The position numbers and the translations under genes were made by a program. 32,000 bases of DNA from assembly GCF_003044035.1 (NCBI RefSeq), contig NZ_NVQC01000022.1, positions 330,001 to 362,000 of the forward strand, in the 5' to 3' direction. Below are positions 4,551 to 27,937 of the stretch, in pieces. Under the pieces are notes generated by a model that saw only the letters and a program-made list of their open reading frames with translations, was not told the origin of the DNA and did not search any database. The stretch comes from Candidatus Methylomirabilis limnetica. Its GTDB lineage: Bacteria; Methylomirabilota; Methylomirabilia; Methylomirabilales; Methylomirabilaceae. How positions within the stretch are numbered: position 1 is the stretch's first letter; every line of letters starts with the position of its first letter.

Positions 4551-4740
4551 ACTCTTCTGCCTCCTGTTCTGGTTGATCGTGATCTGTGAGTGATCCACTA
4601 CAGATTTAAAAACACTCGCCGCTTCCAGAATACCAATGCGCGTCGTTTCACCTCCTTCTTATCTTCCCCCCCAAGTTATCACCTATTCTTCGCGTCCTCG
4701 CCATCCATCTCTCGAGCAGCGGTTGAAAAAACGTTGACTG

Positions 4741-4805: not shown

Positions 4806-4995
4806 GCGTCATTGCGAGTACCCCATCCAGCGGGGGCGGACCCGCAGGTGGCAGAAACTTAGCCAGTTTCTGAGTAGCGCAGCGAAGCAATCTCGCAGTT
4901 CTTGCCTGTGTCACCACGGGATTGCTTCGCCTACAGCTCGCAACGACACTGCGTGTCGGATTGCCGCGCACCCAACGGGCGCTCGCAATGACAGA
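4806..4995. repeat. Family-A repeat cluster including the uninterrupted copy of the IS110 target hairpin
   Basis: 4808-4892 reads gtcattgcgagtaccccatccag..cccgcaggtggcagaaacttagccagtttctgagtagcgcagcgaagcaatc. It is collinear with the sequences flanking the IS110 element when read on the opposite strand. Two more units follow at 4920-4992. Confidence 0.85.
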
Positions 4996-5788: not shown

Positions 5789-6958
5789 CTACGCCTGGTT
5801 CACGCCTGGCGTCATGCGAATGCCATGATAGGCGTGGCACGAGTCGCCGACCAGGTGGTGGAACAGCCGCGGATTGGTCTTCCTGAACTCGAAGAAATCG
5901 GTCCCCTCGATCGCCTTGACCGACTCGTGCAGCGTCCTCGCCCCCTGTTCGATGGTACCCGTCTGTGCCGGGGTAGGAGTCAGGAGACCATGCCCCCTGG
6001 CATAGCTGATGATCTCGAAACTGTGGCCGTAGAACTTGAGTCTGGCGTCGTGATAGTAAATCGCGGCGAGCCTCTGCAAAGCCGGATCGGCATCCTTGGG
6101 GGGTGCCGCCTGGCGATAAAACCGGTCCATCAGGTACCCATCGGCCTGTAACCGCCAGATGTGCAGATCCAGGTAGTCCCGCAGGCGCGCCCGCGCCTGG
6201 TCGCCGCCATGCCCATTCGCCACACACGAGGCCAGGGCGTAGGCCAGGTGCGTGCCACCGCAGGTCAATCCCATGATGGTATCTTTCTCGGTCGGCATGA
6301 CCCCCTGCGCCTTCGCCTGCCGGAACTGTCGCGTCGTCTCGTCCAGCGTGTCCAGGCCGAACCGAACCACATCAGTGAACCGGATCTGCTGCCCCCAGGC
6401 GTTCGTCCAGGTATCCCGGGATGGAACGGTTTGCAGCGAGAAGGCGATCAGCGTCCAGGCCAGATTGTCACGGTCGGCGGTCTTGGGGTCAAACACGAAC
6501 AACGCCTTGGCGCTGTTCGCCAGGTCGCCGACCGTGTAACGGCGGCCGTCCAGCGTAAAGGGGTGACTCAGCGGGACGCCGACCTCCAGGAGCGTCTTGA
6601 GACAGGCGTTGGGATGTCCCTCATGCTCCACCGGCATGTACAGATAGTCCTTGCCGGCCACCCGCTGTGTCTTGAGAAAGCGCGAGCAGAGTAGATCGAC
6701 GGCGCGCTCGCTATTGACGGTAAAATCCGGTCCCATGGCCCGGACCCCGTGCATCAGCACCCAGGGATCATCCAGAAGCCGCGCGTGCCGGGTGATAAGT
6801 GGGGCGAGGATCGCCTGTGTCCCATCCAGAACCTTCGGAACAGACACCAACGGCTGTGCACCGGCCGCCGCCCTCGGCAGGGCCCCGGTCAGCGCAAGCC
6901 CTCCGGCCACGATCGATGCGGCCTGCAGGAACTCGCGCCTCGTCATGCACATACACAT
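5789..6958 (-). CDS. Twin-arginine (TAT) signal protein, function unknown
   Basis: MCMCMTRREFLQAASIVAGGLALTGALPRAAAG is a canonical RR-x-FL TAT motif with an h-region and AxA-like end. A ggagaggg Shine-Dalgarno lies 5 nt before ATG 6958. ATG 6946 is an alternative start. Confidence 0.75.
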   Translation of the reverse strand: MCMCMTRREFLQAASIVAGGLALTGALPRAAAGAQPLVSVPKVLDGTQAILAPLITRHARLLDDPWVLMHGVRAMGPDFTVNSERAVDLLCSRFLKTQRVAGKDYLYMPVEHEGHPNACLKTLLEVGVPLSHPFTLDGRRYTVGDLANSAKALFVFDPKTADRDNLAWTLIAFSLQTVPSRDTWTNAWGQQIRFTDVVRFGLDTLDETTRQFRQAKAQGVMPTEKDTIMGLTCGGTHLAYALASCVANGHGGDQARARLRDYLDLHIWRLQADGYLMDRFYRQAAPPKDADPALQRLAAIYYHDARLKFYGHSFEIISYARGHGLLTPTPAQTGTIEQGARTLHESVKAIEGTDFFEFRKTNPRLFHHLVGDSCHAYHGIRMTPGVNQA

Positions 6959-7110
6959 CGGTGCCCTCTCCTCTCGCCAGCCTCGGCCATTGCACTGCTC
7001 GGCTCTTTGTACTGGATCATGCGCAACTTGTCAAGGATTACTCACGGCCCAAGCACAGCGATAGAAGCCTCCCGTAGTTCCCTCTCCTCTTGATGGGCGT
7101 AAGCGCTCAC

Positions 7111-7530
7111 TTACAGGTCTGCTATCTCTCCTCCCCCTTTGGGAAAAGGGGGGCCAGGGGGGATTTTTCCACTCAACTGTTCAACAATGGTCCGATAGAT
7201 CACCTCCATCACCGCATCGCTTTCTTCCAGCACCTCTCTACTGTTCAAGCGAAGTACCCGCAGACCAAGGGAGCGCAGGTACCCATCACGATGTCTGTCT
7301 TTCAGCGCGTGATCGGCTTCCATGTGCTGTGAGCCGTCCACTTCCACGACCAGTTTTATCCGTGGCGCGAAGAAATCCACAATGTGCTCACCAATAGGTT
7401 TCTGCCGATAGAACTGGATGTCGAGAAGCTGTTTGTTCCGCAAGCGTGACCAAAGCGCCAACTCACTGTCTGTCAGATTCTTCCGTAATTGACGGGCTTT
7501 GTCTTTGAGGTGCGGATGATACCTCAACAT
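7111..7530 (-). CDS. DUF559 (Vsr-like) endonuclease domain protein
   Basis: The 139-aa product contains LRKN.T..E..LW..LR......F.RQ.PIG..IVDF......L..EVDG..H........D..R...L...G..VLR, the characteristic DUF559 pattern. The last ~20 codons (PPGPPFPKGGGEIADL) run into a family-B repeat at 7125-7175. Confidence 0.85.
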   Translation of the reverse strand: MLRYHPHLKDKARQLRKNLTDSELALWSRLRNKQLLDIQFYRQKPIGEHIVDFFAPRIKLVVEVDGSQHMEADHALKDRHRDGYLRSLGLRVLRLNSREVLEESDAVMEVIYRTIVEQLSGKIPPGPPFPKGGGEIADL

Positions 7531-7545
7531 GGCTCAGCCCATGGT

Positions 7546-7656
7546 GAAATCCCCCTCAATCCCCCTTTTTCAAAGGGGGAACTATAGTGAATACCCCTCT
7601 TTGGAAAAGAGGGGCGAGAGCCTGCCCCGGCATGTATTAAGCCGGGGGGAGATTTT
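7546..7656. repeat. Family-B composite element (~110 bp), copy 1
   Basis: Reads aaatccccct(c/t)aatccccctttttcaaaggggga..cccctctttggaaaagagggg..agagcctgccccggcatgtattaagccggggggagatttt and contains three hairpins. It is nearly identical to 14998-15108. Confidence 0.85.
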
Positions 7657-7689
7657 AAACATGCTGTCCACATCCAGTCTTTCACAAAT

Positions 7690-7865
7690 ATTATTGTAAC
7701 TACTCAGGTAGCTAGGCTGAAGGCTGAAGGCTTTTAGGGGTAAGTCATGCGTGATTATACAAAACTCCGAAAAGATCTTGAATGGCTCGATTCGTGCCTT
7801 GCGAGATAATTTAGAACCTTCAGTCTTCAGCCTTCAGTCTAAACGCCTTGTAGTTACATCTTATT
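7690..7865. repeat. Palindromic MITE-like element
   Basis: The outer inverted repeat is gtaactac (7696-7703) / gtagttac (7850-7857). The inner inverted repeat is ggctgaaggctgaagg (7715-7730) / ccttcagtcttcagccttcag (7817-7837). The AT-rich centre carries only a 20-codon ORF. Confidence 0.6.
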
Positions 7866-7889
7866 TTGGATCAGTATGATAGCGGGTAG

Positions 7890-9740
7890 TCATTTTCTAT
7901 CTCTGTTTTTGAGCACGGAGATCTCCTGACGGGTCGACAGGCGGCGGAGGTTGTCTTTCGCCTCCAGAAGGTCCGGCATGAGGCGCAACGCCTCTCGAAA
8001 CGCCGCCTCGGCCTCGGCCGGTTGGTCGCGGTTGGCCAACAGGACGCCGAGATTGTTGTGGGCGTAGGCGGCCGACCGCGGATGGGTCAGCGCCTGCTGA
8101 AACTGCGCCTCGGCCTCAGTTGCCTTGCCCTGCTTCAGGTAGACGGCTCCCAGCCACAGACGCGGAATAGTCTCCCGCGATCGCCCCGCAAGCGCTTTCT
8201 CCAGCTCCTCCTCGGCTCGGACCAGATCGCCCCGATCCATGAGCAGTTTGCCCAGGTTACCACGAGCCACCGTAAGGTCCGGCTGGATCGCCACGGCCGC
8301 CGCAAGCTGCTCCTCCGCTTGATTGAACTGACCTCGGCGTAGGTAGGCCGCCCCCAGGTTGTTCCGCGCCCTGGCCGACTCAGGGGCCGTCTGCACCGTC
8401 TTGCTCCACAGGGTCAGTTCGTCTTTCCAGTCGGCGTTGCGAACCACCGTACGGACAGCAAGGAGGCTGAGCACCAGGATGCAGGCGGTCGCAATAGCCG
8501 CGGATGGCCTGGGCCGGCTTAGTACCGGCTCGAGCAACCCCGCGACCAGCAACGCGAAGCCTACGGAAGGGACATACAGGAAGTGCTCGGCCATCAGGTC
8601 ATGGTGGGGGATAATCTGGGAGACGGGTAGTAAGGCGATCAGAAACCAGAGGCCGCCGAATGCCACCGGCGGCCGTTGGAGCAGCAAGCGGTACCAGGCT
8701 ACCCCCAGCCCTCCCCAGATCGCCACCGCCAACCAGGCGGTCGGGTCGGCCCAGGAGGTGGTTATGGAAAAGGCGTTATACGAGTAGTCGGCATTCAGCG
8801 TCATGGGGAACAGCAGAAGGGCGAGGTAGCGCAGGAAGACGCGCGCCATCGTCAACAGTGTCATCTCGAGACTGCCGCCATGCCACGCCCGCTGCGAGGT
8901 CCCCCGCACAAGGAACAGGACGTAGAAGGCCAGGGCGCCGGTCAGGACGCCGGCCGGAAGGTAAAACCATCGTCCCTCCCGGACCGCAGTAGACGCCGCC
9001 GACCAGATGGCTCGAATTCCTGAGACCTCGCCATCCGGCCCCGACCGCTTGATGCGGCTTACGACATCATAGCCGAGGCACAGCAGCGGCAGGATGATTC
9101 CGCTCTCTTTGGTGAAGAAGGCCAGAGGGCATAGCAGGATCGTCAGGACAAGATCCCGCACCCGACGAGACTGTCGATAACGCAGAAAACTGTAGAAACC
9201 GATCAGGACGAACAGGCCGGACAGGACATCCCGGCGTCCGGACAGATAGGTTACCGACTCGGTCTGAATCGGGTGGACCGCGAACAGCAGTGCGGCAAGG
9301 AGGGCCGGAAGCGGCGAGGCGAACAGGGTCCGGGCGATCAGGTAGACGCAGATTGCCGACAGACCATGCAGTGCCGTGTTGGTGAGGTGGTACCCCCACG
9401 GATCAAGGCCGGAGATGGCGTAATCCATGGCGTAGGAGGCGCTTCTAACGGGACGATAGGCCGACCGACCGCCCAGCAGCGCTTCGAGTTGCTGAAACGG
9501 TCCACTCCCTGGGCGGTGCAGTTCGACAATCGTTTCGAGATCATCGAACAGGAATTCGTTGTCGAAGCTGTTGGAGTAGACCACGCCGACCGCCACAAGC
9601 AGGATCAGCAGGGCGATCGACTGACGGCCGAGCCAGCCTTCAGCCGACGGCGGCTTCAGCCCAGTCCACTTACCCACTATCCCTCCCCGGCGGCGGTCAG
9701 TCGAGCGGAAGGCGACTCGGCGACCAGCTCTTCCCACCAT
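7890..9740 (-). CDS. TMTC/PMT-like GT-C membrane glycosyltransferase with C-terminal TPR repeats
   Basis: 616 aa. The first-loop motif is NSFDNEFLFDD, an acidic DD as in the PMT/TMTC/ArnT class. About 10 hydrophobic helices are followed by a TPR array (NNLGAAYLRRGQFNQAEEQL.., GNLGKLLMDRGDL.., NNLGVLLANRDQ..). It is a paralog of 11615-13633. ATG 9740 overlaps the upstream gene by 44 nt. Confidence 0.75.
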   Translation of the reverse strand: MVGRAGRRVAFRSTDRRRGGIVGKWTGLKPPSAEGWLGRQSIALLILLVAVGVVYSNSFDNEFLFDDLETIVELHRPGSGPFQQLEALLGGRSAYRPVRSASYAMDYAISGLDPWGYHLTNTALHGLSAICVYLIARTLFASPLPALLAALLFAVHPIQTESVTYLSGRRDVLSGLFVLIGFYSFLRYRQSRRVRDLVLTILLCPLAFFTKESGIILPLLCLGYDVVSRIKRSGPDGEVSGIRAIWSAASTAVREGRWFYLPAGVLTGALAFYVLFLVRGTSQRAWHGGSLEMTLLTMARVFLRYLALLLFPMTLNADYSYNAFSITTSWADPTAWLAVAIWGGLGVAWYRLLLQRPPVAFGGLWFLIALLPVSQIIPHHDLMAEHFLYVPSVGFALLVAGLLEPVLSRPRPSAAIATACILVLSLLAVRTVVRNADWKDELTLWSKTVQTAPESARARNNLGAAYLRRGQFNQAEEQLAAAVAIQPDLTVARGNLGKLLMDRGDLVRAEEELEKALAGRSRETIPRLWLGAVYLKQGKATEAEAQFQQALTHPRSAAYAHNNLGVLLANRDQPAEAEAAFREALRLMPDLLEAKDNLRRLSTRQEISVLKNRDRK

Positions 9741-11235
9741 CGGTAGATCGGCTCAGCGCAATCGGCTGATGCACCCGCACGCCATGATCCCAGGCCGCAA
9801 GGACAAGGTCGTTCTTGCCCGCACCAACTAACAGGTCCCTGCTTGTCGTCTGCCCGACCGTCGGCCCGCTCATGATGGCGGCCTGATCAGCCCAACGCTG
9901 CCCGTGATCCTCGGATCGATTCATCAGGACGAACCAACCGTACTTGGGACCAAAGGCATGCTCCTGCCAGACAAGCCAGAGGCGGCCGCCACCGTCATGC
10001 GCCAGCACAGCACCTTCAGGTCGGCCCTTCACCAGGCTCGTCCGTCCAAGCTCAGTAGGCGCTGCCCATGTGGCCCCGGAATCGGTGGAATGGAACACTA
10101 CCAGACGCCGAGTGGAAGTCCCCTCCGCCTCTATGAAGGCGATATATACATGCCCGCGCCCGTCGCAGACAATCTGAGCGGCAGCATTCTTGCGCCGTTG
10201 CAGCGACATGGGACTGGGCTGACTCAGGCGGATCGGCTGGCTCAACCAGGTCCGGCCGCCATCGAGAGAGCGGCTGAAGTAGATCATCCGGTCTACGAAC
10301 CATTCAGGTCGGCGTCGGCCCTGCAATCTGACAATTCGTTGCTCCGCCTGCTCCCAGATCAGATAGACCTGCCCGTCGGGCGCCGCGGCGATTCGCGGCG
10401 CATGGGAACCCCGAGAATCCACGCCAGGCCGGCTGACGAGGATCGGCTCGGACCAGGCCCGGCCATGGTCCTCCGACCGGCTCAGATAAATGCCGGCCTG
10501 TCGCCTCGGGCCCTTCGTGCCCTCTTCCCATACCGCATATAAATGGCCTTTGTCACCGGCGGCTAAGCTCGGATTGGTTATTCCTCTGTCTGACATCGAT
10601 AGGGCCGGCTGGATCCGCGCCGGATTCGGCGCGAATGTCCCGCCGGAATCCATGGAGGTGGCCACATCCAAAACCCGGCGAGACTCGTCCCCACCCAGCC
10701 AGGCCACGTACAGGGCGCCATCCGGACCGGCCTGCAGGTAAGGAGGGCCAAGATGGTCCCCAGCGGCCAGTTCACGAGGCGCCCCATCCCAGTGTCTCCC
10801 GCCATCCAGAGACCTGGCCACCAGGATGCGCGTGTCGGTCTTACCGGCGTTCCGTTCCCGCCAAGCCAGATACACCTGTCCCGTGGGGCCCGTGGCCAGC
10901 TTGATCCCCTCGGCGAACATGCCCTGTGCCGGTTTCCGGGACCACAACGGACCCGACCAGGTAGCGCCGCCATCCTCGGAACGCGAGAATCTGGTCTCCC
11001 AGTCCTTGCCCTCCTCGCCCGTCATCCAGACCAGGTATGCCTCGCCATGCACCCCCATGGCCATCTGGAGCGCCACCTGCTGAAATTTCGTAGGCGACTC
11101 CTCCGACGCCGTGAATTTCACGCCGGTGGGGGACGCCAACTCAGGGCCCGACGACAGCATGGCACACCCGGTGGTAACAGCCAGCACGAGCAGGAGCGCC
11201 GGTAGGCGAAATCGGCTTCGAGCAGTCACAGTCAT
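9697..11235 (-). CDS. BNR/Asp-box repeat beta-propeller lipoprotein
   Basis: There are eight S-x-D-x-G-x-x-W Asp-boxes: SEDGGATW, SLDGGRHW, SMDSGGTF, SEDHGRAW, SLDGGRTW, STDSGATW, SEDHGQRW and STDGGKSW. The N-terminus LLLVLAVTTGC is lipoprotein-like. A ggaggg Shine-Dalgarno precedes ATG 11235. Confidence 0.85.
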   Translation of the reverse strand: MTVTARSRFRLPALLLVLAVTTGCAMLSSGPELASPTGVKFTASEESPTKFQQVALQMAMGVHGEAYLVWMTGEEGKDWETRFSRSEDGGATWSGPLWSRKPAQGMFAEGIKLATGPTGQVYLAWRERNAGKTDTRILVARSLDGGRHWDGAPRELAAGDHLGPPYLQAGPDGALYVAWLGGDESRRVLDVATSMDSGGTFAPNPARIQPALSMSDRGITNPSLAAGDKGHLYAVWEEGTKGPRRQAGIYLSRSEDHGRAWSEPILVSRPGVDSRGSHAPRIAAAPDGQVYLIWEQAEQRIVRLQGRRRPEWFVDRMIYFSRSLDGGRTWLSQPIRLSQPSPMSLQRRKNAAAQIVCDGRGHVYIAFIEAEGTSTRRLVVFHSTDSGATWAAPTELGRTSLVKGRPEGAVLAHDGGGRLWLVWQEHAFGPKYGWFVLMNRSEDHGQRWADQAAIMSGPTVGQTTSRDLLVGAGKNDLVLAAWDHGVRVHQPIALSRSTDGGKSWSPSRLPLD

Positions 11236-11387
11236 TTACAGTCCCTCCATTGATGATCTGACAGGCTACTGCCGCCTGATTATTGATCGAGTGCGTACAC
11301 GAAAAAGCTCTACACGATCTCACGAAACGACGCCCGCTGTCAATACCAATGGTCGGCCCAGGCATAGACTCTTGACAGCGCAACCCG

Positions 11388-11562
11388 TTCATTTTCGTTG
11401 AGGGTCGATACCCCGCGGCTTGCCGCGAGTTCGTCATACCGGCGGAAGCCGGTATCCAAGGGCCCGACTGGATTCCCCCGTATCCAGTACGGGGCAGGCG
11501 TGTCAAGCACGGAATGACGGGCCAGAACAGAAGACGATACCCTGCGGCTTGCCGCGGGGAGG
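11388..11562. repeat. Family-C multi-hairpin element (~175 bp), copy 1
   Basis: Hairpins are ccgcggc-tt-gccgcgg (twice), ataccggc-gga-agccggtat, ccccgta-tccag-tacgggg and cgtg-tcaag-cacg. The reverse complement is roughly 95 percent identical by eye to 29127-29303. Confidence 0.85.
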
Positions 11563-11614
11563 CTTCATTGGCCGGTCATGACATCTTCGTAGGGACGGGG
11601 TTGATCCCCGCCCA

Positions 11615-13633
11615 TTAATCGGGAGGGGAAATCGGGGGAGAGTGGAGAATCGAATCAAGCAACTCGCGCGCCTCCGCCAGGTCGCCCTTCAGACTCAGCG
11701 CCTTCCTCAGGGAGGCCACGGCCCGACCCTGCTGCCCCTGCGCATGATAGACTTCCCCAAGCAGGTTATGAAGCTTCGGATCTGCGCCATTGTACCGGAC
11801 GGCCTCCTCTAACTCCAGTATCCCCGCTTGCATCTGCCCTTTCTCGAGATAGGCCAATCCCAGGTTTTGCCTGGCATCGGCGTAGCTGGGATCAAGGGCG
11901 ACCGCCTCTTTGAATGCCTGCTCAGCCTCAGCCGGCCGTTCCTGATTGGCGCGCACCATTCCCAGGTTGTTCAGCGCCCGCGCCCGCTGTGACGGCGACA
12001 GTTGCAGCGACGCCAGGGCTGCGAGGAGGTGCGCCTCGGCCTGTTTCACCTGCCCGCGCCTGAGGGAGACGACACCCAGGTTGATCCTGACATCAAGCGG
12101 CAGGGTCTTCAGGCGAAGCGCCGTGGTGAGGGCCTGCTCCGCTCCGTCCCAATTCCCCTGCTCAAGCAGCATCACACCCAGGTTATTCCAGGTCGCCGCA
12201 TCGTCCGGCATAATCCGGAGAGCCTCCCGAAACTCCCGGGCGGCCTCTTGGCGACGTCCTCGGATCATATACAGCCGGCCCAGGTTTCGGCGCGCCCTCG
12301 CCGATGCCGGGGCGGTCTGGACCGTCTTGGTCCAGAGTGTCAGGTCATCCTTCCAATCGCGGGTCCGAATGACCGTCCTGAATCCGAGCAGAAGCACCAC
12401 AAGCGCGAAGACGGCCAAGACAACCCGGCGCTGTCGGACACGCTCAAGCAGCCCTTCCACCAGCATGGCGGCTGCAAGACACAAGCCGATCGACGGCAAG
12501 TACAGATAGTGCTCGGCTACGATCTCATGATGGGGGATGATCTGGGCGACGGGCAGCAGTGTCATAAAGACCCAGAGGCCCCCGAATGCCGCCCACCGGT
12601 GGGAAGCCAGGAGCTGCCAGATCGCCCACCAGCTCCCGCCCACCACTGCGATTGCCATCAGGACCCGGCCATCCAAGAGGGTACCCGGCACCGGAAAGGC
12701 GTTGAAGGAGTAATCCGCGTTCAGGGTAACGGGCCAGAGCAGCAGTGTCAGGTAGTGACCCATGATCGTGACGCTGGTGAGCACTGTCGGCCAGAGTCCG
12801 CCGCCCCACAGGTCAAACCGTTGTGTGACGCGGAAGAGCACCACGAAGTAGTAGGCCACCGCGGAAAAGATCGCCCCGATCACCAGATAGAGGCACCTGT
12901 GCTCCCGCCAGAGCCGCCGTCCCGCCTCCCTGAGGGCCATCCAGGAACTCCATCCTCCCTCTCCGCCCTCGGGCATGGAGCGGACCAGATCATACCCGAG
13001 ACAGAGCAACGGGAGGGTGATCGCCATCTCCTTCGAGAGGAGGCCGAGACAGTACGAGATCCCGGTCAGGCACAGGAACCGCACCTTGCCGGTCGCCCGG
13101 TATCGGACGAATCCATAGAACCCCATCAGATAGAACAGGGTGAACAGGACATCCCGCCGGCCGGATATGTAGGCGACGGCCTCGGTCTGGACTGGGTGGA
13201 CGATAAAGAGCAGCGTCGCCAGGAAGGCGGGCCGGGTGATCCCCAGGATGGTCCGCAGCACGGTGAAAACCAGGACCCCGTTCAGGGCATGGTAGAGGAT
13301 GTTGAACGCCCGGAAACCCGACGGGTTGAGCCCGAACAGGGCATAGTCGATCGCGTACGAGGCGGTGCGAAGCGGGCGATACGAAAGCCATCCGCCGGAC
13401 CTGAATAACTGCGTGAGCCCCTCGATCGAGCGAAACCGGAGATCGGTCGCGACCAGTGGATGGTCGTCGAAGACAAAGCCGTTGAAAAGTGAACCGGCGT
13501 ACAGGAGTCCGGCCACCCCCACGATTACCAGACAAACCGCCACCGGGCGGGACCAGAATGAAAGCGGGCGATCAGGCACAGGCGCTAAAAAAAGACCCCC
13601 CTGGCCGGACGACCAGGGGGGTGGAGTGTACAT
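11615..13633 (-). CDS. TMTC/PMT-like GT-C membrane glycosyltransferase with C-terminal TPR repeats
   Basis: 672 aa. The first-loop motif is GSLFNGFVFDD, followed by a polytopic membrane domain and a long TPR array (RNLGRLYMIRGRRQEA.., NNLGVMLLEQGNWDGA.., NNLGMVRANQERPAEA.., QNLGLAYLEKGQMQ..). The ATG lies 6 nt after the stop of the collagen-like gene. Confidence 0.75.
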   Translation of the reverse strand: MYTPPPWSSGQGGLFLAPVPDRPLSFWSRPVAVCLVIVGVAGLLYAGSLFNGFVFDDHPLVATDLRFRSIEGLTQLFRSGGWLSYRPLRTASYAIDYALFGLNPSGFRAFNILYHALNGVLVFTVLRTILGITRPAFLATLLFIVHPVQTEAVAYISGRRDVLFTLFYLMGFYGFVRYRATGKVRFLCLTGISYCLGLLSKEMAITLPLLCLGYDLVRSMPEGGEGGWSSWMALREAGRRLWREHRCLYLVIGAIFSAVAYYFVVLFRVTQRFDLWGGGLWPTVLTSVTIMGHYLTLLLWPVTLNADYSFNAFPVPGTLLDGRVLMAIAVVGGSWWAIWQLLASHRWAAFGGLWVFMTLLPVAQIIPHHEIVAEHYLYLPSIGLCLAAAMLVEGLLERVRQRRVVLAVFALVVLLLGFRTVIRTRDWKDDLTLWTKTVQTAPASARARRNLGRLYMIRGRRQEAAREFREALRIMPDDAATWNNLGVMLLEQGNWDGAEQALTTALRLKTLPLDVRINLGVVSLRRGQVKQAEAHLLAALASLQLSPSQRARALNNLGMVRANQERPAEAEQAFKEAVALDPSYADARQNLGLAYLEKGQMQAGILELEEAVRYNGADPKLHNLLGEVYHAQGQQGRAVASLRKALSLKGDLAEARELLDSILHSPPISPPD

Positions 13634-13639
13634 AGACGG

Positions 13640-14716
13640 CTAGGGCACCGTAGTCAGCAGGGACCAGGATCCTGGCGACACGGCCGGCGTTGTGCCAAGG
13701 GCCGTGTGTTCCACCGCTATCAAATCGGCTGCGGCAAACGTCACGTTGCTTGAGACGAGGCAGTTATCGACAGTATCAGAAATCGTACAGGTCAGCGTGG
13801 TAGCAGCCCCACCATTCCGGACAGTGAACTTACGACTCTGACTAGCACCAGGGCCAACTTTTAGCTTCACCCGCATGACGCTGACGGTGCTCGCAGGTAC
13901 AGGGACCGAGACGTCAGTCGATGCCACAGTACTATTGCCATTACCTGGACCCATCCAGCGAAGAGCGGTACCAAGGTCGGCTCCACCTGACCCGCCGGTC
14001 AGGAGACTCCTGACATTCGGTCCTGCTGGGCCAGTTGCACCTGTGGCGCCCGTGGCACCAGTTGCACCCGTGGCGCCTGTGGCGCCTGTTGAGCCTGTGG
14101 CACCTGTGCCACCTGCGGCACCTGTGGCGCCCGTGGCACCAGTTGCACCCGTGGCGCCTGTTGAGCCTGTTGAGCCTGTTGAGCCTGTGGCACCTGTTGA
14201 GCCTGTCGGTCCGGCTGGTCCTGTTGGTCCTGTTGCGCCAGTTGGTCCTGTCGGTCCGGCTGGTCCGGCTGGTCCGGCGGCGTCAAGGTTCTCACTCGCC
14301 GCTACCCCTGCCATGACAAGACTGCCGCTGAAGGCCCCCACAAAGGGGAAGAGACGCGCCGGGCTGCCCTGTAGCGCCACCTGCCCCTGGATGTTGATCC
14401 CCTCTACGGTGCTGGTCGTCAGGTGCCCGGTGCTGTCTACTGAGTAGCTACCGGTGATGTTAAAAGGCGTCGTCGCCCCCCCAACCTCTTTCATGGACCC
14501 TACTATCGCCACCGTACCCGGATTGGCGCAGGGACTTCCGGGAGTAAAAGTCAACGTCCCGAGAGCCTGGGTAGGGATTCCGGGCTCCACCATGGTGCTG
14601 AAGGAATAGATCCCCGAGAGACTGCAGGAATCGGCTGTCCAGCCGGGTGTAGGCAGGATCAGCACGGCCGCGGTGAGCAGGCCGGCTAGGACCGTACTCT
14701 TGGTTCGTGTACGCAT
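13640..14716 (-). CDS. Secreted collagen-like triple-helix repeat protein (G-X-Thr rich)
   Basis: The start is set to ATG 14716 ([22 protein letters not shown]..), which has an aagggg Shine-Dalgarno. The protein has a signal peptide, an N-terminal domain of about 140 aa, 29 uninterrupted G-X-Y triplets (GPA/GPT/GAT/GST) and a C-terminal domain of about 115 aa. Confidence 0.9.
14018..14275 (-). repeat. Coding tandem repeat (G-X-Y triplets, 9-nt periodicity)
   Basis: 258 nt of ggn-nnn-acn type codons. A 44-nt block is exactly duplicated 81 nt apart, at 14037-14080 and 14118-14161. Confidence 0.9.
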
Positions 14717-14896
14717 AAAGCGCCCCCTTTTCTGTCTACGGTTTACTGGCTCCCTCTTCGCGAAGGAGACACCAACAGAGGATCGTGAAACTACGCTTTG
14801 AATTATCAACCAACAACCCTGATAAAAAGAGTACTCAGGTCACCACACTGCCTGAATGTAACAGACTACGAGCAGGAAAAGAAGATCAGGAGAGTC

Positions 14897-14924
14897 AGTA
14901 TCACAGTCCATCACTTGGTGTCAA
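14897..14924 (-). promoter_or_regulatory. Possible sigma70-like promoter of the collagen-like/GT-C operon
   Basis: The minus strand reads TTGACA (14924-14919), a 16-nt spacer, then GATACT (14902-14897). The leader would be about 175 nt. Confidence 0.3.
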
Positions 14925-14935
14925 GTAAAATACGG

Positions 14936-15137
14936 GCCGGCACGTAACCATTCAGTGAGAGGGGGGAAATCATTAAATAAAATGTGGTATGTTTTTATAA
15001 AATCCCCCTTAATCCCCCTTTTTCAAAGGGGGAAACGGGTAGTCCCCCTCTTTGGAAAAGAGGGGTTAGAGCCTGCCCCGGCATGTATTAAGCCGGGGGG
15101 AGATTTTTCCACCCGTAACTGAATGGTTACGCCGGCA
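14936..15137. repeat. Family-B composite element (copy 2, 14998-15108) nested inside a ~20-bp inverted repeat
   Basis: The core is nearly identical to 7546-7656. The outer arms gccggcacgtaaccattcag (14936-14956) and ctgaatggttacgccggcac (15118-15137) are complementary over at least 13 nt. Confidence 0.8.
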
Positions 15138-15169
15138 CTGTCTTCATTTCGTTCGCGAACCGCTGCCTG

Positions 15170-15312
15170 GTCATTGCGAGCGACCAACGGGAGCGTGGCA
15201 ATCCAACCGTTCTGCCTTCCTGGTCTTGAAGAACGGTGAGATTGCTTCGCCTACGGCTCGCAACGACACCGTGTGTCGGATTGCCACGCACCCTACGGGT
15301 GCTCGCAATGAC
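15170..15312. repeat. Family-A repeat cluster
   Basis: Contains gtcattgcgagcgaccaacgggagcgtggcaatc, gagattgcttcgcctacggctcgcaacgac and ggattgccacgcaccctacgggtgctcgcaatgac. It explains the spurious N-terminal extension of ORF 15226-16368. Confidence 0.8.
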
Positions 15313-15405
15313 GGGAAGAATCGAGCGATTTCGAAGTCTATTGCTGTTCTTGGGCTGGAAATGGCGCTTGAGGGGTCAGGGGCGACCTGTTATACTGCCA
15401 CCGCA

Positions 15406-16368
15406 ATGAACTATCCGCCGCATCTGTCCGTCATCATCCCCCTCTTGAACGAGGCCGACGGTCTGCCGGAACTCTACCGGGAGCTCCAGGAGGCCCTCCG
15501 CCCATGGGCCAATCGCCATGAGCTGATCTTTGTGGATGACGGCAGCACGGACGGCTCATTTGCCGCGCTCGAAAAGCTCCACGCAGAAGACCCACGGGTG
15601 GTCGTCCTTCGCTTTCGCCGGAATCAGGGAAAGGCGAGCGCGTTGATGGCGGGGTTTCGCCGGGCGAGAGGAGAAATCCTGGTTACGCTCGACGCCGACC
15701 TGCAGGATGATCCGCGGGAAATCCCGCGATTTCTCGACAAGCTGGACGAGGGGTTCGATCTGGTGTCGGGATGGAAAGTCAAACGCCAGGACCCCATCAT
15801 CAGGCGGGTGCTCTCGCGGGTCTTCAACAGCGTCACGTCGCTGTTCACGGGACTCACGCTCCACGATTTTAATTGCGGCTTCAAATGCTATCGGAGGGGT
15901 GTGATCCAGGAGATCAGGCTCCACGGGGAGCTGCACCGGTTCATTCCGGCGTTGGCGAGTTGGCGGGGTTTCAGGATAGCGGAGATCGAGGTCGCACACC
16001 GGCCGCGGAAATACGGCCAGTCAAAATACGGCTCCGAACGGATCCCTCGCGGCTTCTTCGACCTGCTGACCGTCTTGATTCTGACCCGCTACCATCTGAG
16101 GCCACTTCACCTTTTCGGGGCCTTAGGAGCCCTGCTCAGTCTGGCAGGTTCCATCGGTCTAGCGTATCTGGTTTTCGGCTGGTTCTTCGGACAATGGATC
16201 GGTGACCGCCCCCTCCTCAGCCTCAGCATTCTGACGATGATCATCGGCCTACAGTTCATCTTTTTCGGACTCCTGGCCGAGATCATCGTCTACTCCAGCA
16301 GGCAAACCGACATCCCCCCGCTTGCCGCTGTCCTCGACCAGGACGACTCTCGCAAGGACATCGATTAA
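15406..16368 (+). CDS. GT2 polyprenyl-phosphate glycosyltransferase (DPM1/GtrB/ArnC-like)
   Basis: The start is set to ATG 15406 (MNYPPHLSVIIPLLNE). Motifs present are VDDGSTDGS and DADLQDDP (DXD). Two C-terminal TM helices (LHLFGALGALLSLAGSIGLAYLVFGWF; LLSLSILTMIIGLQFIFFGLLAEIIVY) match the GtrB/ArnC architecture. ATG 15361 is an alternative start. Confidence 0.85.
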   Translation: MNYPPHLSVIIPLLNEADGLPELYRELQEALRPWANRHELIFVDDGSTDGSFAALEKLHAEDPRVVVLRFRRNQGKASALMAGFRRARGEILVTLDADLQDDPREIPRFLDKLDEGFDLVSGWKVKRQDPIIRRVLSRVFNSVTSLFTGLTLHDFNCGFKCYRRGVIQEIRLHGELHRFIPALASWRGFRIAEIEVAHRPRKYGQSKYGSERIPRGFFDLLTVLILTRYHLRPLHLFGALGALLSLAGSIGLAYLVFGWFFGQWIGDRPLLSLSILTMIIGLQFIFFGLLAEIIVYSSRQTDIPPLAAVLDQDDSRKDID

Positions 16369-16383
16369 GAAAATCTCCCCCTA

Positions 16384-16443
16384 CCCCTCTTTTCCAAAGA
16401 GGGGTACATCCTCCCTTTGGCAAAGGGAGGTCAGGAGGGATTC
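16384..16443. repeat. Family-B double hairpin between convergent genes (likely bidirectional terminator)
   Basis: Reads cccctcttttccaaagagggg, then cctccctttggcaaagggagg, TCA and ggagggatt. It is the intact counterpart of the repeat split by the ISAzo13 element at 24326-24388 / 25685-25700. Confidence 0.6.
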
Positions 16444-16450
16444 GTCGATT

Positions 16451-17125
16451 TCACGGTGCGCGATGCGTCTTGCGCCTCCCGCTCGTTTTTCCTCTCCATC
16501 CGGGAGTGCTCCCCTCGTCAGCGGCACGCACCTCCTCTGGAATTCCACCGAAAAACCAATACAGGGCCATCCAGATCAACACCGGTAAAAGCTGACTCGC
16601 CATCGACAGGTAGAAGTTCGTCCCCCAGACAGAGAGGCGACCGGCAACGCTCTGAAAGGCTTCAAGTTCAGGCTGCTGAAAGAATTTCATGCCGATCACA
16701 AGGTACAGTATGTGTGTCAAAAACAGAACACCCAACGCGATCGTCAGACTTACACACCGGCGCCTCCAAGCAACGTGCCGCTGGGCCAATACAAGGCCAG
16801 TCATGAGAACGAGATTGAAGTGAGTCAAATAGCCTGTGAATCCCTGGATCTTCATCCCTTCCGTAAAAGGGCGATCCGAGCGCATAATTAAAATATTGCC
16901 CTTCCAACCCACGAGGCTATGAACACGAGGGGCCTCTGTGACGGCAAGCAGGACATTGGCGCCGGAGGCGAGAAGGCGGTTGTAGCCGGGGGTGATGACG
17001 AACCACAGGGGGAGGATGAGGCAGAAGACCAGGAGAAACCGGCCGGCAAACGCCAGCAGCGCTTTAGTGTCGGGGAGCACCGACAAACCGCTCCGTCCAG
17101 TAGATCCAGGCCAGAAGGGCGGCAA
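16451..17125 (-). CDS. Polytopic membrane protein co-transcribed with the exosortase (possible exosortase-H-associated membrane protein)
   Basis: About 5-6 hydrophobic helices. The ORF overlaps the exosortase stop at 17064. The ORF-track start is TTG 17125, and GTG 17080 is an alternative. The family assignment comes from context only. Confidence 0.55.
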   Translation of the reverse strand: MPPFWPGSTGRSGLSVLPDTKALLAFAGRFLLVFCLILPLWFVITPGYNRLLASGANVLLAVTEAPRVHSLVGWKGNILIMRSDRPFTEGMKIQGFTGYLTHFNLVLMTGLVLAQRHVAWRRRCVSLTIALGVLFLTHILYLVIGMKFFQQPELEAFQSVAGRLSVWGTNFYLSMASQLLPVLIWMALYWFFGGIPEEVRAADEGSTPGWRGKTSGRRKTHRAP

Positions 17126-17576
17126 AGATGATCAACGATTGCCAAATCAGTAGATGGGCAGTCTCGAAGAATGACGGAAAATAGCGGCCGATATACATGA
17201 GACTGACCACTCTAATGAGGTTTAAAGAGAGGATCACTGATGCCCCCAGCAGAACCCCCTTGAGTTTCTCTGTCGCCCGACTTGGATAGGCCAGGACTGC
17301 TGACACGTAGATCGCCACGACAAAGATGCCGGTGCACACATCGTCGATCCGAGCCGCAAACCCCTCAACCTGGAGGATAGTTCCCGAAGTCGTGGCCTTG
17401 AGGGACAGGAGGTTCAGGACGAACCCGCTGACTGCGGCAAACGCCAGCGCCAGCGGCTGCCCGACAAGCTCCCGCATGATGCTTGTTCGTAGGAGCGTGT
17501 AAAACACGATGATGCACACCAGGAAGGTGATACATGCCCTGACCACTGGCTTATTTAGACTAAGTCGTTGCTCCAT
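17064..17576 (-). CDS. Exosortase/archaeosortase family protein, short form (XrtH-like)
   Basis: 170 aa with about 5 TM helices. The family signature residues occur in order: catalytic Cys in DDVCTGIF, Arg in LNLIRVVS and His in ETAHLLIWQ. An IPTLxxWG-like substrate is encoded in the same locus at 27938-28837. Confidence 0.8.
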   Translation of the reverse strand: MEQRLSLNKPVVRACITFLVCIIVFYTLLRTSIMRELVGQPLALAFAAVSGFVLNLLSLKATTSGTILQVEGFAARIDDVCTGIFVVAIYVSAVLAYPSRATEKLKGVLLGASVILSLNLIRVVSLMYIGRYFPSFFETAHLLIWQSLIIFAALLAWIYWTERFVGAPRH

Positions 17577-17876
17577 CGATTCCCTTTTGCACCTTCAAGG
17601 AGTGAGGAAAAGAAAGAGTGCGGTTAGCATTCTACATACAACAGCACTACACCCATTGTCACTACCTACACATACCATCCGACCCAGGCATACTCATCAG
17701 ACCGCATGCGGCGGCTCAAGTGATCGCTGACCGAGTCGCCGGACGCGCCGCCGCGTGGGCAGCAAAACAGCGGTCAATATCAGCTCACTGCGGTCAGCTT
17801 GCACACATTGAAGTTGTCTGGATCAGAGGTGAGGGTGCGCCCCCAAACCTTTTCACTCTTGCCTGCTTCTACCGGA

Positions 17877-18736: not shown

Positions 18737-19495
18737 TCACCGTAGGGGTGTTGCGCGTTGCGGGGGTTCGGTGGCGAGCCTTTGTCGGATACGCCAAAGG
18801 TCCACCAACATCTGCACGGGGTGACGCAGCAGGCTCACCTGACTGCTCGGATCATTGATCCAGCGCACCGGCATCTCACATACGGCATATCCCAACTGCA
18901 TCGCGATAAGGATAGCCTCGACGTCGAAGGCAAAGCCGTCGATACGCGCGTATTGGAAGACCGCGTGCGCCGCCTCGCGCCGAAACAGCTTGAAACCGCA
19001 CTGCGTATCCCGAAAAGGGATCGAGAGGTAGACCCGCAGGAGGCGATTGAACAGCTTCCCCATCAATTCCCGCAGGCGAGTCTGACGCACCAGTATCTGC
19101 GATCCTACCAGCGCGCGTGAACCGATCACAAGATCGCTACCCTCCGAAAGGAGCTTCAAGGCTCCATCTACCTCCTCAATGGGTGTGGAGAGATCCGCAT
19201 CCGAGAACAGCACGACCGCTCCCGTGGCCGCCATCATACCGGCCCGAATGGCGGCGCCCTTGCCCCGGTTCTGTGAGAAGCGAATCAGCCTCAACTCCGG
19301 CGCGCGCGCCATGAATTGTTCCACGACGGCGACCGTGCTATCGCGCGATCCGTCATCCACTACAATCATCTCGAACCCGCCCGCCCCGTATCGGGACCGC
19401 AAATAGCCCCACACCCGCTGGAGCGATGGGCCGATCCGACTCGCCTCATTGTACGTGGGAATCACTACGCTTAATTGAATCGCCTCTTGCCCCAT
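18737..19495 (-). CDS. GT2 glycosyltransferase, dolichyl/polyprenyl-phosphate beta-glucosyltransferase (ALG5)-like
   Basis: Motifs are LSVVIPTYNE, VVDDGSRDST, SDADLSTP (DXD) and the downstream RDTQCGFK typical of the DPG-synthase subgroup. The start overlaps the upstream gene by 50 nt. Confidence 0.8.
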   Translation of the reverse strand: MGQEAIQLSVVIPTYNEASRIGPSLQRVWGYLRSRYGAGGFEMIVVDDGSRDSTVAVVEQFMARAPELRLIRFSQNRGKGAAIRAGMMAATGAVVLFSDADLSTPIEEVDGALKLLSEGSDLVIGSRALVGSQILVRQTRLRELMGKLFNRLLRVYLSIPFRDTQCGFKLFRREAAHAVFQYARIDGFAFDVEAILIAMQLGYAVCEMPVRWINDPSSQVSLLRHPVQMLVDLWRIRQRLATEPPQRATPLR

Positions 19496-27859: not shown

Positions 27860-27868
27860 GACCGCTCC

Positions 27869-27904
27869 AAAAAGCAAGAACGGGGCTTAACGCCCCGTTC
27901 TTGC
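27869..27904 (-). terminator. Rho-independent terminator of the 27938-28837 gene
   Basis: On the minus strand, the stem gcaagaacgggg / ccccgttcttgc with a ~7-nt loop is followed by TTTTT. It lies about 35 nt after the stop. Confidence 0.75.
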
Positions 27905-27937
27905 GATTATCACGTAACCTGCGTATTCAGTTGTCGA

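Follow-up and report, generated by a model that had tools for sequence, protein, structure and literature searches.

Within its S-layer/exosortase-H (XrtH) cell-envelope gene island, the methane-oxidising bacterium Candidatus Methylomirabilis limnetica encodes what appear to be two operon-like units, in each of which the gene for a predicted Sec-exported protein precedes a GT-C glycosyltransferase gene. We propose, with a probability of roughly one half, that these units are periplasmic protein O-glycosylation modules whose linked partners, a collagen-like protein (COL) and a β-propeller lipoprotein (BNR), are candidate acceptors for the transferases GTC2 and GTC1, respectively. The kind of module is already known from PilA-TfpW and Pgf; what is new is the variant with COL and BNR as partners. 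The window, by which we mean the whole stretch of DNA analysed, comprises 32,000 nt (GCF_003044035.1, NZ_NVQC01000022.1 positions 330,001-362,000, forward strand). The gene structure, homology, motifs, synteny, conserved adjacency and insertion described below are established, and from them we infer the donor type, the topology and a protein acceptor for GTC1 and GTC2.

As we envisage it, a GT2 synthase would put a monosaccharide on polyprenyl phosphate at the cytoplasmic face, the lipid-linked sugar would then be flipped, and GTC1 and GTC2 would pass the sugar to periplasmic acceptors, most probably protein Ser/Thr residues, with the TPR tail of each enzyme docking its protein partner. The product of the upstream gene would be the cognate substrate, which is more likely for COL, or, for BNR, an accessory or substrate lipoprotein.

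Gene layout, junctions and the two partner proteins

The original prediction placed four co-oriented genes on the minus strand, and all four open reading frames are confirmed; in their longest form they span 13640-14716 (collagen-like), 11615-13633 (GT-C/TPR), 9697-11235 (BNR) and 7890-9740 (GT-C/TPR). COL lies directly upstream of GTC2, and BNR directly upstream of GTC1. Pfam assigns Collagen to COL, BNR_2 to BNR, and PMT_2 together with TPR to each transferase. A repeat-filled gap of about 380 nt had been noted between GTC2 and BNR, and repeats are indeed present in what is a 379-nt gap: it holds a dispersed 173-bp element (11388-11559) that shares 95% identity with window 29130-29302 and carries a 22-nt palindromic unit twice. 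No Rfam family matched within window 7000-16000.

The supposed 6-nt gap between COL and GTC2 and the supposed 44-nt overlap of BNR with GTC1 are both artefacts of choosing the longest ORF. Between COL and GTC2 lies an intrinsic terminator or attenuator (13587-13622, minus strand; a G+C-rich 12-bp stem, a 4-nt loop and T7), 3′ of the COL stop and within the opening 40 nt of the longest ORF for GTC2. This hairpin is kept in seven related loci (the window, L008, L021, L086, L169, L170 and L171), and in all of them a GTG or ATG start stands at the homologous position 3′ of it; in L171 the hairpin and that start are separated by some 470 bp of repeats, and L086 has another copy of the terminator 3′ of COL1. 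Because the conserved hairpin precedes the conserved start, translation of GTC2 most likely begins at GTG 13579, following a 60-nt spacer after COL, which would yield an enzyme of 654 aa (11615-13579, minus strand). GTC1 likewise has a revised GTG start, at 9677 and 19 nt past the BNR stop, giving an enzyme of 595 aa (7890-9677, minus strand); this start is preceded by a Shine-Dalgarno site, the junction GGGGAGGG-N3-GTG is conserved, and a database gene call (P0001, 595 aa) that is 100% identical to GTC1 supports it. With the revised starts, the spacers and the terminator, the proposal that each transferase is translationally coupled to its partner is not supported; the conserved COL-GTC2 terminator implies differential expression inside one unit. 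Such an order, COL then terminator then GTC2, would suit an abundant structural protein with a low-level modifying enzyme, and it parallels the order S-layer gene, terminator and PTPS-type GT-C gene in the same window.

COL (13640-14716, minus strand) is a predicted exported protein of 358 aa in which a signal peptide and an N-domain are followed by 29 G-X-Y triplets and a C-domain, and it matches Pfam Collagen with E 5e-12 (45.8 bits, cutoff 27.2). Its signal peptide and its uninterrupted G-X-Y run between globular domains are those of an Scl/BclA-type protein; the NCBIfam Scl and Lcl models match the collagen run only, far under cutoff. Neither an LPXTG anchor nor exosporium targeting was found in COL, whose C-terminus (...SWSLLTTVP) bears no anchor. 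Homologs are rare, with only 7 among 5.8e9 proteins, and those that are named or have a genomic context belong to Methylomirabilis or Methylomirabilota (CBE67391 in M. oxyfera); a literature search on Methylomirabilis and collagen gave no relevant match. Thr occupies the Y position in 23 of the 29 triplets of the window protein and in 3-7 of the 11-18 triplets of its homologs. Because the Thr-rich collagen run is specific to the window, G-X-T is not a conserved acceptor motif, and this triplet comparison weakens the idea that the G-X-T threonines are a conserved acceptor.

BNR (9697-11235, minus strand) is an Asp-box β-propeller lipoprotein of 512 aa and eight blades (Pfam BNR_2, E 2.4e-23), whose lipobox Cys24 is invariant among 19 orthologs; the Ser/Thr richness of its tether is not conserved. 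Its AF2 model (pLDDT 88.7) has 8 Asp-box repeats and 30 strands. We consider it highly unlikely that BNR is an active sialidase-type glycosidase that merely shares an operon with a transferase. Homologs do carry annotations such as "exo-alpha-sialidase" and "sialidase family protein", a weak GH43 match accompanies BNR_2 in Pfam, and sialidases head the Foldseek list for the model, the closest folds being glycoside hydrolases (TM-scores of 0.35-0.48) and lyases. However, TMq against sialidases is at most 0.38, the model is eight-bladed and not six-bladed, and PDB sialidase sequences match single Asp-boxes only. Furthermore, the invariant residues are nearly all part of the Asp-boxes or the repeat framework (S/D/G/W and the Asp-box Arg), with E369 as the sole other polar one, and BNR shows none of the GH33 sialidase features that were sought (six blades, Arg triad, Tyr/Glu pair, acid/base Asp). 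Because BNR and COL both lack an IPTL-CTERM signal, neither is predicted to be an XrtH substrate.

The transferases, their donor synthase and related systems

The two transferases are clear paralogs, as had been proposed, sharing 43% of residues across 569 aa (E 4e-139). Modelling gives each of them about 11 TM helices and a TPR tail that is predicted to be periplasmic (~5 TPRs in GTC1, ~7 in GTC2). The F-x-F-DD loop is common to both and invariant across the GT-C/TPR family; the motif comes immediately after TM1, is invariant in comparisons of 9 and of 43 homologs, and is placed in a loop by the AF2 helices. Both enzymes exceed the PMT_2 (PF13231) cutoff of 26.1 bits (GTC1 43.8, GTC2 33.0) and fall below the cutoff of 27 for TMTC_DUF1736 (PF08409; GTC1 24.2 bits, GTC2 22.7 bits), a family for which many close homologs have a precomputed match. 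In the AF2 model of GTC2 (pLDDT 87.9), helices fitting 11 TM segments are followed by a juxtamembrane helix (280-299) and 14 TPR helices, that is, 7 TPRs. A Foldseek search of the PDB with the complete GTC2 model found TPR proteins only (OGT, APC/C), which gives no information on the TM fold. Matches of GTC1 to PDB chains by phmmer were likewise limited to TPRs, and an HMM of the TM domain matched no PDB sequence, hence no close relative of solved structure.

One close likeness is to the eukaryotic TMTC1-4 (PMC7801869), against which motifs M1-M5 and M7 were compared using Table 4 of that paper. M1 (DD), M2 (YRP), M3 (RRD) and M4 (KE) are present and family-invariant, and variants are found at M5 (DY for DW) and M7 (EHxxY for ERxxY). 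[quoted passage not shown] As is predicted for the window enzymes, TMTC1-4 are N-in proteins that cross the membrane 11 times and end in a non-cytoplasmic TPR domain; DD lies in EL1, RxD in EL2 and KE in EL3, and the YRP motif is present. A DUF1736-like TM7-TM8 loop and multiple paralogs per genome are further points in common, as would be a lipid-phosphate-sugar donor from a DPM1/GtrB-like GT2, and "LFAVHPIQT" of the window closely resembles "LFAVHPIHT" of TMTC3. In contrast to TMTC1-4, the host is bacterial, with undecaprenyl phosphate as the presumed lipid carrier, there are no cadherins, DUF1736 scores under the Pfam cutoff, and M5 and M7 differ as described. According to a 2021 analysis, the transferase activity of the TMTC proteins was itself assigned through indirect evidence and modelling and never directly demonstrated (PMC7801869). 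It is of interest that a compact bacterial locus encodes a TMTC-like enzyme next to both the synthase that likely makes its lipid-sugar donor and a candidate acceptor, and that two paralogous versions with different partners would permit specificity-swap work on substrate choice by the TPR domain.

The putative donor synthase is GT2 (15406-16368, plus strand), transcribed divergently from COL and resembling the polyprenyl-phosphate-sugar synthases ArnC, GtrB and PgfS (Pfam Glycos_transf_2, E 4.8e-34), with C-terminal TM helices. Its NCBIfam matches, ArnC as the best (E 2e-60) and PgfS (E 3e-39), are both under their equivalog cutoffs. Homologs of GT2 adjoin or neighbour GT-C/TPR genes in about 25 loci, and GT2 likely supplies the sugar donor for GTC1 and GTC2; a small flippase of the GtrA or ArnE/F type was not found among the annotated ORFs of the window.

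Several bacterial systems show a comparable logic. The Gtr/Arn three-component systems and the streptococcal Pgf and GtrB-PgtC2 systems (PMC12041528) combine a GT-A synthase of Und-P-sugar with a GT-C enzyme that has an extracytoplasmic DxD loop, as here, where the GtrB/ArnC-like GT2 adjoins the COL-GTC2 unit. The Pgf cluster also contains the genes for its substrate adhesins (Cnm, CnaB, CbpA), much as the candidate acceptors are encoded in the window, and the acceptors are Ser/Thr-rich regions (PMC12041528). The Gtr and Pgf GT-C enzymes, unlike those of the window, are YfhO-type or Gtr-type and carry no TPR tail. In PilA-TfpW of Pseudomonas aeruginosa, the substrate gene is immediately upstream of a ~650-aa GT-C gene (bioRxiv 10.1101/2020.04.19.049825); compared by description, TfpW resembles the predicted form of the window enzymes in its 11 predicted TM helices, in the periplasmic placement of both its DDx loop and its TPR domain, and in its lipid-linked donor, but the window partners are COL and BNR rather than a pilin, and D-Araf pathway genes are absent. 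For COL-GTC2 in particular, the sgtA-bclA3 pair of Clostridioides difficile also places a G-x-T collagen-like surface protein beside a dedicated glycosyltransferase, and Thr in the collagen region of BclA3 (G-P-T repeats) is O-glycosylated by SgtA, the adjacent-gene enzyme (PMC7157674). SgtA, however, is a soluble enzyme of the cytoplasm or mother cell with UDP-GlcNAc as its donor, and not a periplasmic GT-C that draws on a lipid donor.

Conservation of the pairings and origin of the tandem arrangement

Whether partner and transferase genes stay neighbours in the same orientation elsewhere depends on how far one looks. Within Methylomirabilota they do, and synteny counts reject chance adjacency of partner and transferase genes. 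BNR precedes a GT-C/TPR gene in 10 distinct loci (the window, L001, L003, L004, L005, L006, L081/82/92, L084, L089 and L101), among which BNR identity falls to ~29-32%, and COL precedes a GTC2-type gene wherever its downstream context is readable (6-7 loci: the window, L008, L021, L086, L169/170 and L171). In L083, the BNR gene does not adjoin the transferase; a 393-aa gene upstream of the GT-C gene there was considered as a collagen-less COL homolog and rejected, as it belongs to the TAT389 family. Distant BNR homologs are without a GT-C gene nearby, yet co-occur with TAT389 and P208. A metagenome scan with the BNR profile and a loose pattern yielded mostly distant BNR proteins and was informative on adjacency only for L089, L092 and L101. 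Across the wider GT-C family the pairings do not hold, and the module is not general: among 78 genome loci, only those of Methylomirabilota have BNR or COL upstream, and in the others the upstream gene encodes a GT4 (12/38), a secretin (8/38), or otherwise a methyltransferase or a further paralog. A subfamily among these other GT-C/TPR proteins adjoins secretin/T4P-like genes. The partner that is conserved family-wide is the ArnC/GtrB-like GT2.

In the GT-C phylogeny, the transferases partnered with BNR span three clades; the GTC2 clade consists of exactly those transferases with COL upstream. The original prediction of a local tandem duplication does not survive comparison with the syntenic Methylomirabilis locus L004, relative to which a 4.0-kb segment (11360-15356; COL, GTC2 and repeat-bearing flanks) has been cleanly inserted. 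By blastn, window 7916-11359 corresponds to L004 9762-6280 and window 15357-17594 to L004 6279-4054, the junction in L004 being contiguous. At 80% identity, the inserted DNA matches M. oxyfera L086 11085-14231, a cassette that adjoins the S-layer gene, and on the strength of these alignments COL and GTC2 transpose together, as a cassette. The strict match between COL and the GTC2 clade, with this joint transposition, argues for a specific COL-GTC2 relation.

XrtH (exosortase H; 17064-17576, minus strand), which scores 91.5 bits with NCBIfam TIGR04177 (cutoff 86), marks the island, and a conserved core set of XrtH, its 224-aa partner, GT2, BNR, GT-C, TAT389, P208 and P301 goes with the BNR, Shine-Dalgarno site and GTC1 arrangement. 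In the loci compared, GTC1, BNR and GT2 always accompany XrtH and its partner.

Candidate acceptors

It is worth considering that the GT-C/TPR enzymes might modify a non-protein acceptor (lipid A/LPS core, O-antigen or exopolysaccharide) in the manner of ArnC/ArnT or GtrABC, with BNR as a periplasmic glycan-binding or glycan-trimming propeller and COL as an unrelated surface fibre. ArnC as the best NCBIfam match of GT2, PMT_2 as the Pfam family of both transferases, and an island rich in GT2, GT4 and additional GT-C genes all fit such a reading, as do the glycoside hydrolase and lyase folds nearest to the BNR model; in Binatia and deltaproteobacterial loci, moreover, genes for a polysaccharide ABC exporter of the Wzm/Wzt type come after a GT-C/TPR homolog, and a BNR protein is encoded 4 kb downstream. 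We nonetheless regard it as quite unlikely, given that the TPR-tailed GT-C enzymes cited above (TMTC, TfpW) act on proteins, that the BNR family is without conserved catalytic residues and resembles hydrolases only at the low TM-scores given above, and that the GT2 matches are all far under equivalog cutoffs. ArnT and Gtr-type GT-C enzymes are not known to have a TPR tail.

A protein acceptor could also be one other than the linked partners. The S-layer-type protein of the window (27938-28837, minus strand) has a signal peptide, a T16 stalk and an IPTL-CTERM anchor, its C-terminus showing the IPVVPT motif, TM helix and basic tail of the XrtH/IPTL-CTERM system (a literature search on IPTL-CTERM and exosortase gave no match). 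Its M. oxyfera homolog has a T24 stalk beside the membrane anchor; the 299-aa IPTL protein of M. oxyfera should be CBE67388, because accessions run consecutively from CBE67391. The GT-C/TPR enzymes could be general or S-layer-directed O-glycosyltransferases whose acceptors are Ser/Thr-rich tracts near the inner membrane, above all this poly-Thr stalk next to the anchor, with BNR and COL as co-located envelope proteins or accessory factors. The constant company that GTC1, BNR and GT2 keep with XrtH and its partner favours this, as does the fact that in other Methylomirabilis genomes COL-GTC2 immediately follows the S-layer gene with its GT-C, and streptococcal GtrB and GT-C systems modify disordered poly-Ser/Thr regions of many proteins (PMC12041528). 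In addition, the Methylomirabilis S-layer protein has been characterised: that of M. lanthanidiphila migrates at ~90 kDa against a predicted 31.6 kDa, and its C-terminal tail is the only part undetected by MS, so the published proteomics is blind to the poly-Thr tail (PMC8671808). However, preliminary stains appeared to its authors to exclude glycosylation (PMC8671808), and the S-layer gene has a more obvious candidate of its own immediately downstream, a PTPS_related GT-C (25685-27859, minus strand) preceded by a terminator 3′ of the S-layer-type gene (27904-27874, minus strand), an order that is repeated in M. oxyfera L086. The COL/GTC2-clade correspondence and the joint transposition likewise favour a specific relation, and we consider a mainly S-layer-directed or general role unlikely. 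The locus bears on whether the unusually robust, cell-shape-determining S-layer of Methylomirabilis and its associated surface proteins are glycosylated.

To return to linked partners as acceptors, a bolder form of that proposal would make the bacterial TMTC-like GT-C/TPR proteins domain-specific protein O-glycosyltransferases whose acceptors, the BNR propeller and the COL fibre, are encoded directly upstream; they would be a prokaryotic counterpart, possibly an ancestor, of the one-paralog-per-fold logic of animal TMTC/TMEM260, and the partner would have changed from BNR to COL with remodelling of the TPR domain. We hold this extended version to be rather improbable. The one hint that the TPR domain may select the partner is that, when the COL-partnered clade is compared with the BNR-partnered sister clade, identity falls further in the TPR domain (46%) than in the TM domain (60%).

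Gene boundaries and the origin of the tandem arrangement

The locus comprises four co-oriented genes on the minus strand: COL, encoding a collagen-like exported protein (13640-14716; Pfam Collagen), GTC2, a GT-C/TPR glycosyltransferase (longest ORF 11615-13633; PMT_2 and TPR), BNR, a BNR-propeller lipoprotein (9697-11235; BNR_2), and GTC1, a second GT-C/TPR glycosyltransferase (longest ORF 7890-9740; PMT_2 and TPR). The original prediction described this order correctly, but the 6-nt gap between COL and GTC2 and the 44-nt overlap of BNR with GTC1 that it reported are artefacts of taking the longest ORFs. Directly 3′ of the COL stop lies a terminator-like hairpin (13622-13595; 12-bp stem with 9 G-C pairs, 4-nt loop, T7), which is kept with small stem and loop differences 3′ of COL in L008, L021, L086 (M. 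oxyfera), L169/L170 and L171, and which in M. oxyfera also follows the first of two COL copies. All hairpin-bearing COL-GTC2 loci have a GTG or ATG at the homologous position just past the T-run, and in L086 there is no in-frame GTC2 start upstream of the homologous GTG; in L171 the hairpin and the GTC2 start are ~470 bp apart, with repeats between them. Because hairpin and start codon are conserved at homologous positions across loci, GTC2 most likely begins at GTG 13579 and encodes 654 aa, with a 60-nt spacer ahead of it that contains the terminator. The GTC1 start falls at 9677, 19 nt past the BNR stop, given that the database gene call is 595 aa long (P0001, 100% identical to GTC1) and that the junction TGA-N8-GGGGAGGG-N3-GTG is kept in L003 and L004.

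GTC1 and GTC2 are indeed paralogs (43% identity over 569 aligned residues, E 4e-139), but their adjacency, which had been attributed to duplication of a module, did not arise by local duplication. In blastn comparison with the syntenic Methylomirabilis locus L004, window positions 7916-11359 correspond to L004 9762-6280 and positions 15357-17594 to L004 6279-4054, and these two flanking matches define 11360-15356 as a clean 4.0-kb insertion. This segment carries COL, GTC2 and repeat-bearing flanks, and shares 80% identity with the cassette that M. oxyfera has next to its S-layer gene; therefore a mobile unit, and not local duplication, juxtaposed the two cassettes. Also missing from L004 are a DUF559 endonuclease-like gene (7111-7530, minus), a segment with a PA14-domain GT-C and a 252-aa GT2, and an ISAZ013-type DDE transposase (24412-25647, minus); an IS110-family transposase occupies 1388-2746 (minus). 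The repeats predicted in the GTC2-BNR gap (379 nt) are present as a 173-bp element 95% identical to window 29130-29302. Several short dispersed repeat families (REP/MITE-like) occur in intergenic regions and flank inserted segments (window 7547-7656, 14943-15312, 11388-11559, 29130-29302, 29433-29495, 4920-4992, 3039-3088 and 62-133; L171 2400-2760, where related repeats are inserted between terminator and GTC2). One of them, translated as ‘...SPTARND...’, creates a false N-terminal extension of ORF 15226-16368.

The GT-C/TPR enzymes and the conservation of their partners

Both transferases match PMT_2 above the Pfam cutoff, TMTC_DUF1736 below it, and many TPR families; homologs with names belong to Candidatus Methylomirabilis, phylum NC10. 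The family-invariant residues correspond to TMTC motifs tabulated in PMC7801869: in EL1, M1 (DD in both) and M2 (SHKSYRP in TMTC, Y-R-P here); in EL2, M3 (RxD, R-R-D); in EL3, M4 (KE(T/Q)xxT, K-E); in EL4, M5 (DW, D-Y); and in EL5, M7 (ERxxY, E-H-x-x-Y). In addition, ‘LFAVHPIQT’ is a near-match to ‘LFAVHPIHT’ of TMTC3. The two enzymes share most TMTC motifs and may act as TMTC1-4 do; their assignment to the TMTC type is tentative, since the DUF1736 match falls short of the cutoff and M5 and M7 diverge. The helices of the GTC2 AF2 model (pLDDT 87.9) fit 11 TM segments plus a single juxtamembrane helix within the DUF1736 region, and seven TPRs come after them; tracking sides from a cytoplasmic N-terminus would make all motifs, like the TPR tail, periplasmic. 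Sequence searches (GTC1, and a TM-domain profile against the PDB) found no solved structure, and Foldseek with the GTC2 model matched the TPR part alone. The TM-domain family is very large: at E≤1e-3 it comprises 84,528 clusters of 50% identity, and at the stricter E≤1e-30 still 2,136.

The proposed pairing of partner gene and transferase survives in part, in that both pairings are conserved as adjacent genes within Methylomirabilota, but elsewhere the family has other upstream genes. Among 78 genome loci with GT-C/TPR homologs, BNR or COL lies upstream in Methylomirabilota only; outside it, the upstream gene is a GT4 in 12 of the 38 loci classified and a secretin of a T2SS/T4P-like cluster in 8/38, with a methyltransferase or another GT-C/TPR paralog among the remainder. 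In some MAGs of Proteobacteria and Terriglobia the paralogs stand in tandem, three to seven genes in a row (L069, L070, L080 and L016 2-11934, the last with an array of seven). The partner that recurs across phyla is an ArnC-like GT2 (about 25 loci, E<1e-100); in the window, GT2 (15406-16368, plus), transcribed divergently from COL, belongs with the polyprenyl-phosphate-sugar synthases of ArnC/GtrB/PgfS type.

BNR orthologs with identities as low as about 29-32% have a GT-C/TPR gene directly 3′ of them in the window, L001, L003, L004, L005 and L006, and further in L081/82/92, L084, L089 and L101; L083 is an exception, with the order TAT389-GT-C-GT2-x-BNR. Remoter BNR homologs (about 27% identity; L096, L099) keep TAT389 and P208 as neighbours and have no GT-C within 5 kb. 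COL, for its part, has seven homologs among 5.8 billion proteins, and in every locus with readable context it lies 5′ of a GTC2-clade gene, sometimes as two tandem copies. When the TM domains are placed in a neighbor-joining tree, the enzymes with a COL partner coincide exactly with the GTC2 clade, and those partnered with BNR are spread over three clades (GTC1; L081/L084; and L006, which is the sister of the GTC2 clade). This pattern suggests that the BNR arrangement is the older, with COL taking the place of BNR in one lineage.

Three families without Pfam match accompany BNR in all Methylomirabilota loci: TAT389 (TAT-signal, 389 aa; 5789-6958, minus), the 208-aa lipoprotein P208 (5052-5678, minus) and the P301 paralogs (3267-4598, minus; 29687-30592, plus). 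In L002, a Methylomirabilota-like MAG, a YncE/lactonase-type beta-propeller of a family different from BNR (7291/8098-9978; weak BACON_2, below the Pfam cutoff) occupies the BNR slot, followed by a tandem GT-C/TPR pair and a GT2.

The surrounding envelope island

By its gene content, the window is predicted to be a glycosylation island for the cell envelope. Its genes encode exosortase H (XrtH, above the curated cutoff) with a 224-aa membrane partner alongside, three GT2 enzymes of DPM1/PgfS-like type, a B12/radical-SAM enzyme, a GT4, and four GT-C enzymes: GTC1, GTC2, a PA14-domain one with a weak DUF6056 match, and a PTPS_related one. A 299-aa protein (27938-28837, minus) carries a signal peptide and, ahead of its IPTL-CTERM anchor, a T16 stalk; the S-layer protein of Gambelli et al. 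(PMC8671808; 316 aa), whose homolog in M. oxyfera is CBE67388, likewise has a signal peptide and IPTL-CTERM. In M. oxyfera a 299-aa IPTL protein with a T24 stalk is encoded three genes ahead of COL (CBE67391), and the consecutive accession numbering identifies it as CBE67388. In both genomes the S-layer-type gene is followed by a strong terminator and a GT-C gene, the same layout as COL-terminator-GTC2.

This third pair of exported protein and GT-C spans 25685-28837 (minus), with the intrinsic terminator at 27904-27874 and the PTPS_related GT-C starting from ATG 27859; the M. oxyfera pair (L086 6247-9378) has the identical order and a terminator of different sequence. The poly-Thr stalk (16-24 residues; window protein residues ~252-268, L086 6247-7146) abuts the anchor. 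Besides GT2, the stretches 18737-22061 and 22165-22914 (both minus) include two small DPM1/PgfS-like GT2 genes, one overlapping the 3′ end of the gene for an 871-aa protein with a C-terminal PA14 domain and the weak match to DUF6056 (GT-C-type); the window could thus contain several distinct pairs of lipid-sugar synthase and GT-C.

Possible acceptors and precedents

We favor, at a probability of about 0.5, a pathway in which GT2 would make a polyprenyl-phosphate sugar that GTC1 and GTC2 would use for periplasmic protein glycosylation, their TPR tails docking the protein partner. COL is the likelier dedicated substrate, as argued by its exclusive co-occurrence and joint mobility with the enzyme and by the layout of structural gene, terminator and enzyme gene; BNR could serve either as a substrate or as an accessory lipoprotein. 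The signal peptide, N-domain and C-terminal SPGSWSLL motif of COL are all conserved, its collagen run is between 11 and 29 triplets long, and Thr occupies the Y position in 23/29 triplets in the window protein and in 3-7 in homologs. In a protein of L087 (P0246, 5802-6941) the signal peptide and N-domain are those of COL, and an FGE-sulfatase domain stands in place of the collagen and C-domains; the contig stops 195 nt past its gene.

It is also conceivable, if rather unlikely, that the sugar actually goes to the poly-Thr stalk of the S-layer protein, or to Ser/Thr-rich proteins of the envelope generally. The stalk fits heavy modification, as the S-layer tail was the sole region undetected by MS and the protein ran at about 90 kDa (PMC8671808); the exclusive association of COL with the GTC2 clade points to COL. 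We consider it improbable that the acceptor is a glycan or lipid, with BNR handling the polymer, and more improbable still that BNR is an active sialidase. BNR is a lipoprotein (lipobox Cys24 invariant in 19 orthologs) with eight Asp-box repeats and an all-beta propeller model (pLDDT 88.7); its invariant residues are Asp-box or framework positions and one Glu only, PDB sequence matches span single Asp-boxes, and Foldseek TM-scores against sialidases, GH74 and ulvan lyase are 0.24-0.48, which together make a canonical sialidase unlikely.

The pairing of a substrate with its transferase has precedents, and the GT-C/TPR family itself is common; the system would thus be of a kind already known. 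The donor logic would be that of Gtr/Arn, streptococcal Pgf and GtrB-PgtC2; Pgf and GtrB-PgtC2 target Ser/Thr-rich extracytoplasmic regions, and Pgf substrates are encoded in the same cluster (PMC12041528). In sgtA-bclA3 (PMC7157674) a G-x-T collagen-like protein likewise adjoins its own glycosyltransferase, but the SgtA donor is a nucleotide sugar. New here is what the transferases are paired with, collagen-like COL and the propeller lipoprotein BNR, within an NC10 S-layer/XrtH island. The locus offers a tractable bacterial system for studying TPR-guided specificity of GT-C enzymes, and it allows a concrete test of whether Methylomirabilis surfaces are glycosylated.

In PilA-TfpW the layout is alike: the gene of the substrate precedes that of a GT-C enzyme with 11 TM helices and a TPR domain on the periplasmic side (bioRxiv 10.1101/2020.04.19.049825). 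A GT-C/TPR subfamily directly 3′ of a T2SS/T4P-like secretin (with GspK, PilM/N, T2SS-M; L002 1-6812, L029, L034, L037) recalls TfpW-type pilin glycosylation by analogy. In L037 (1496-15136) the GT-C/TPR gene is followed by a Wzt-type ABC exporter, and a BNR protein is encoded about 4 kb downstream.
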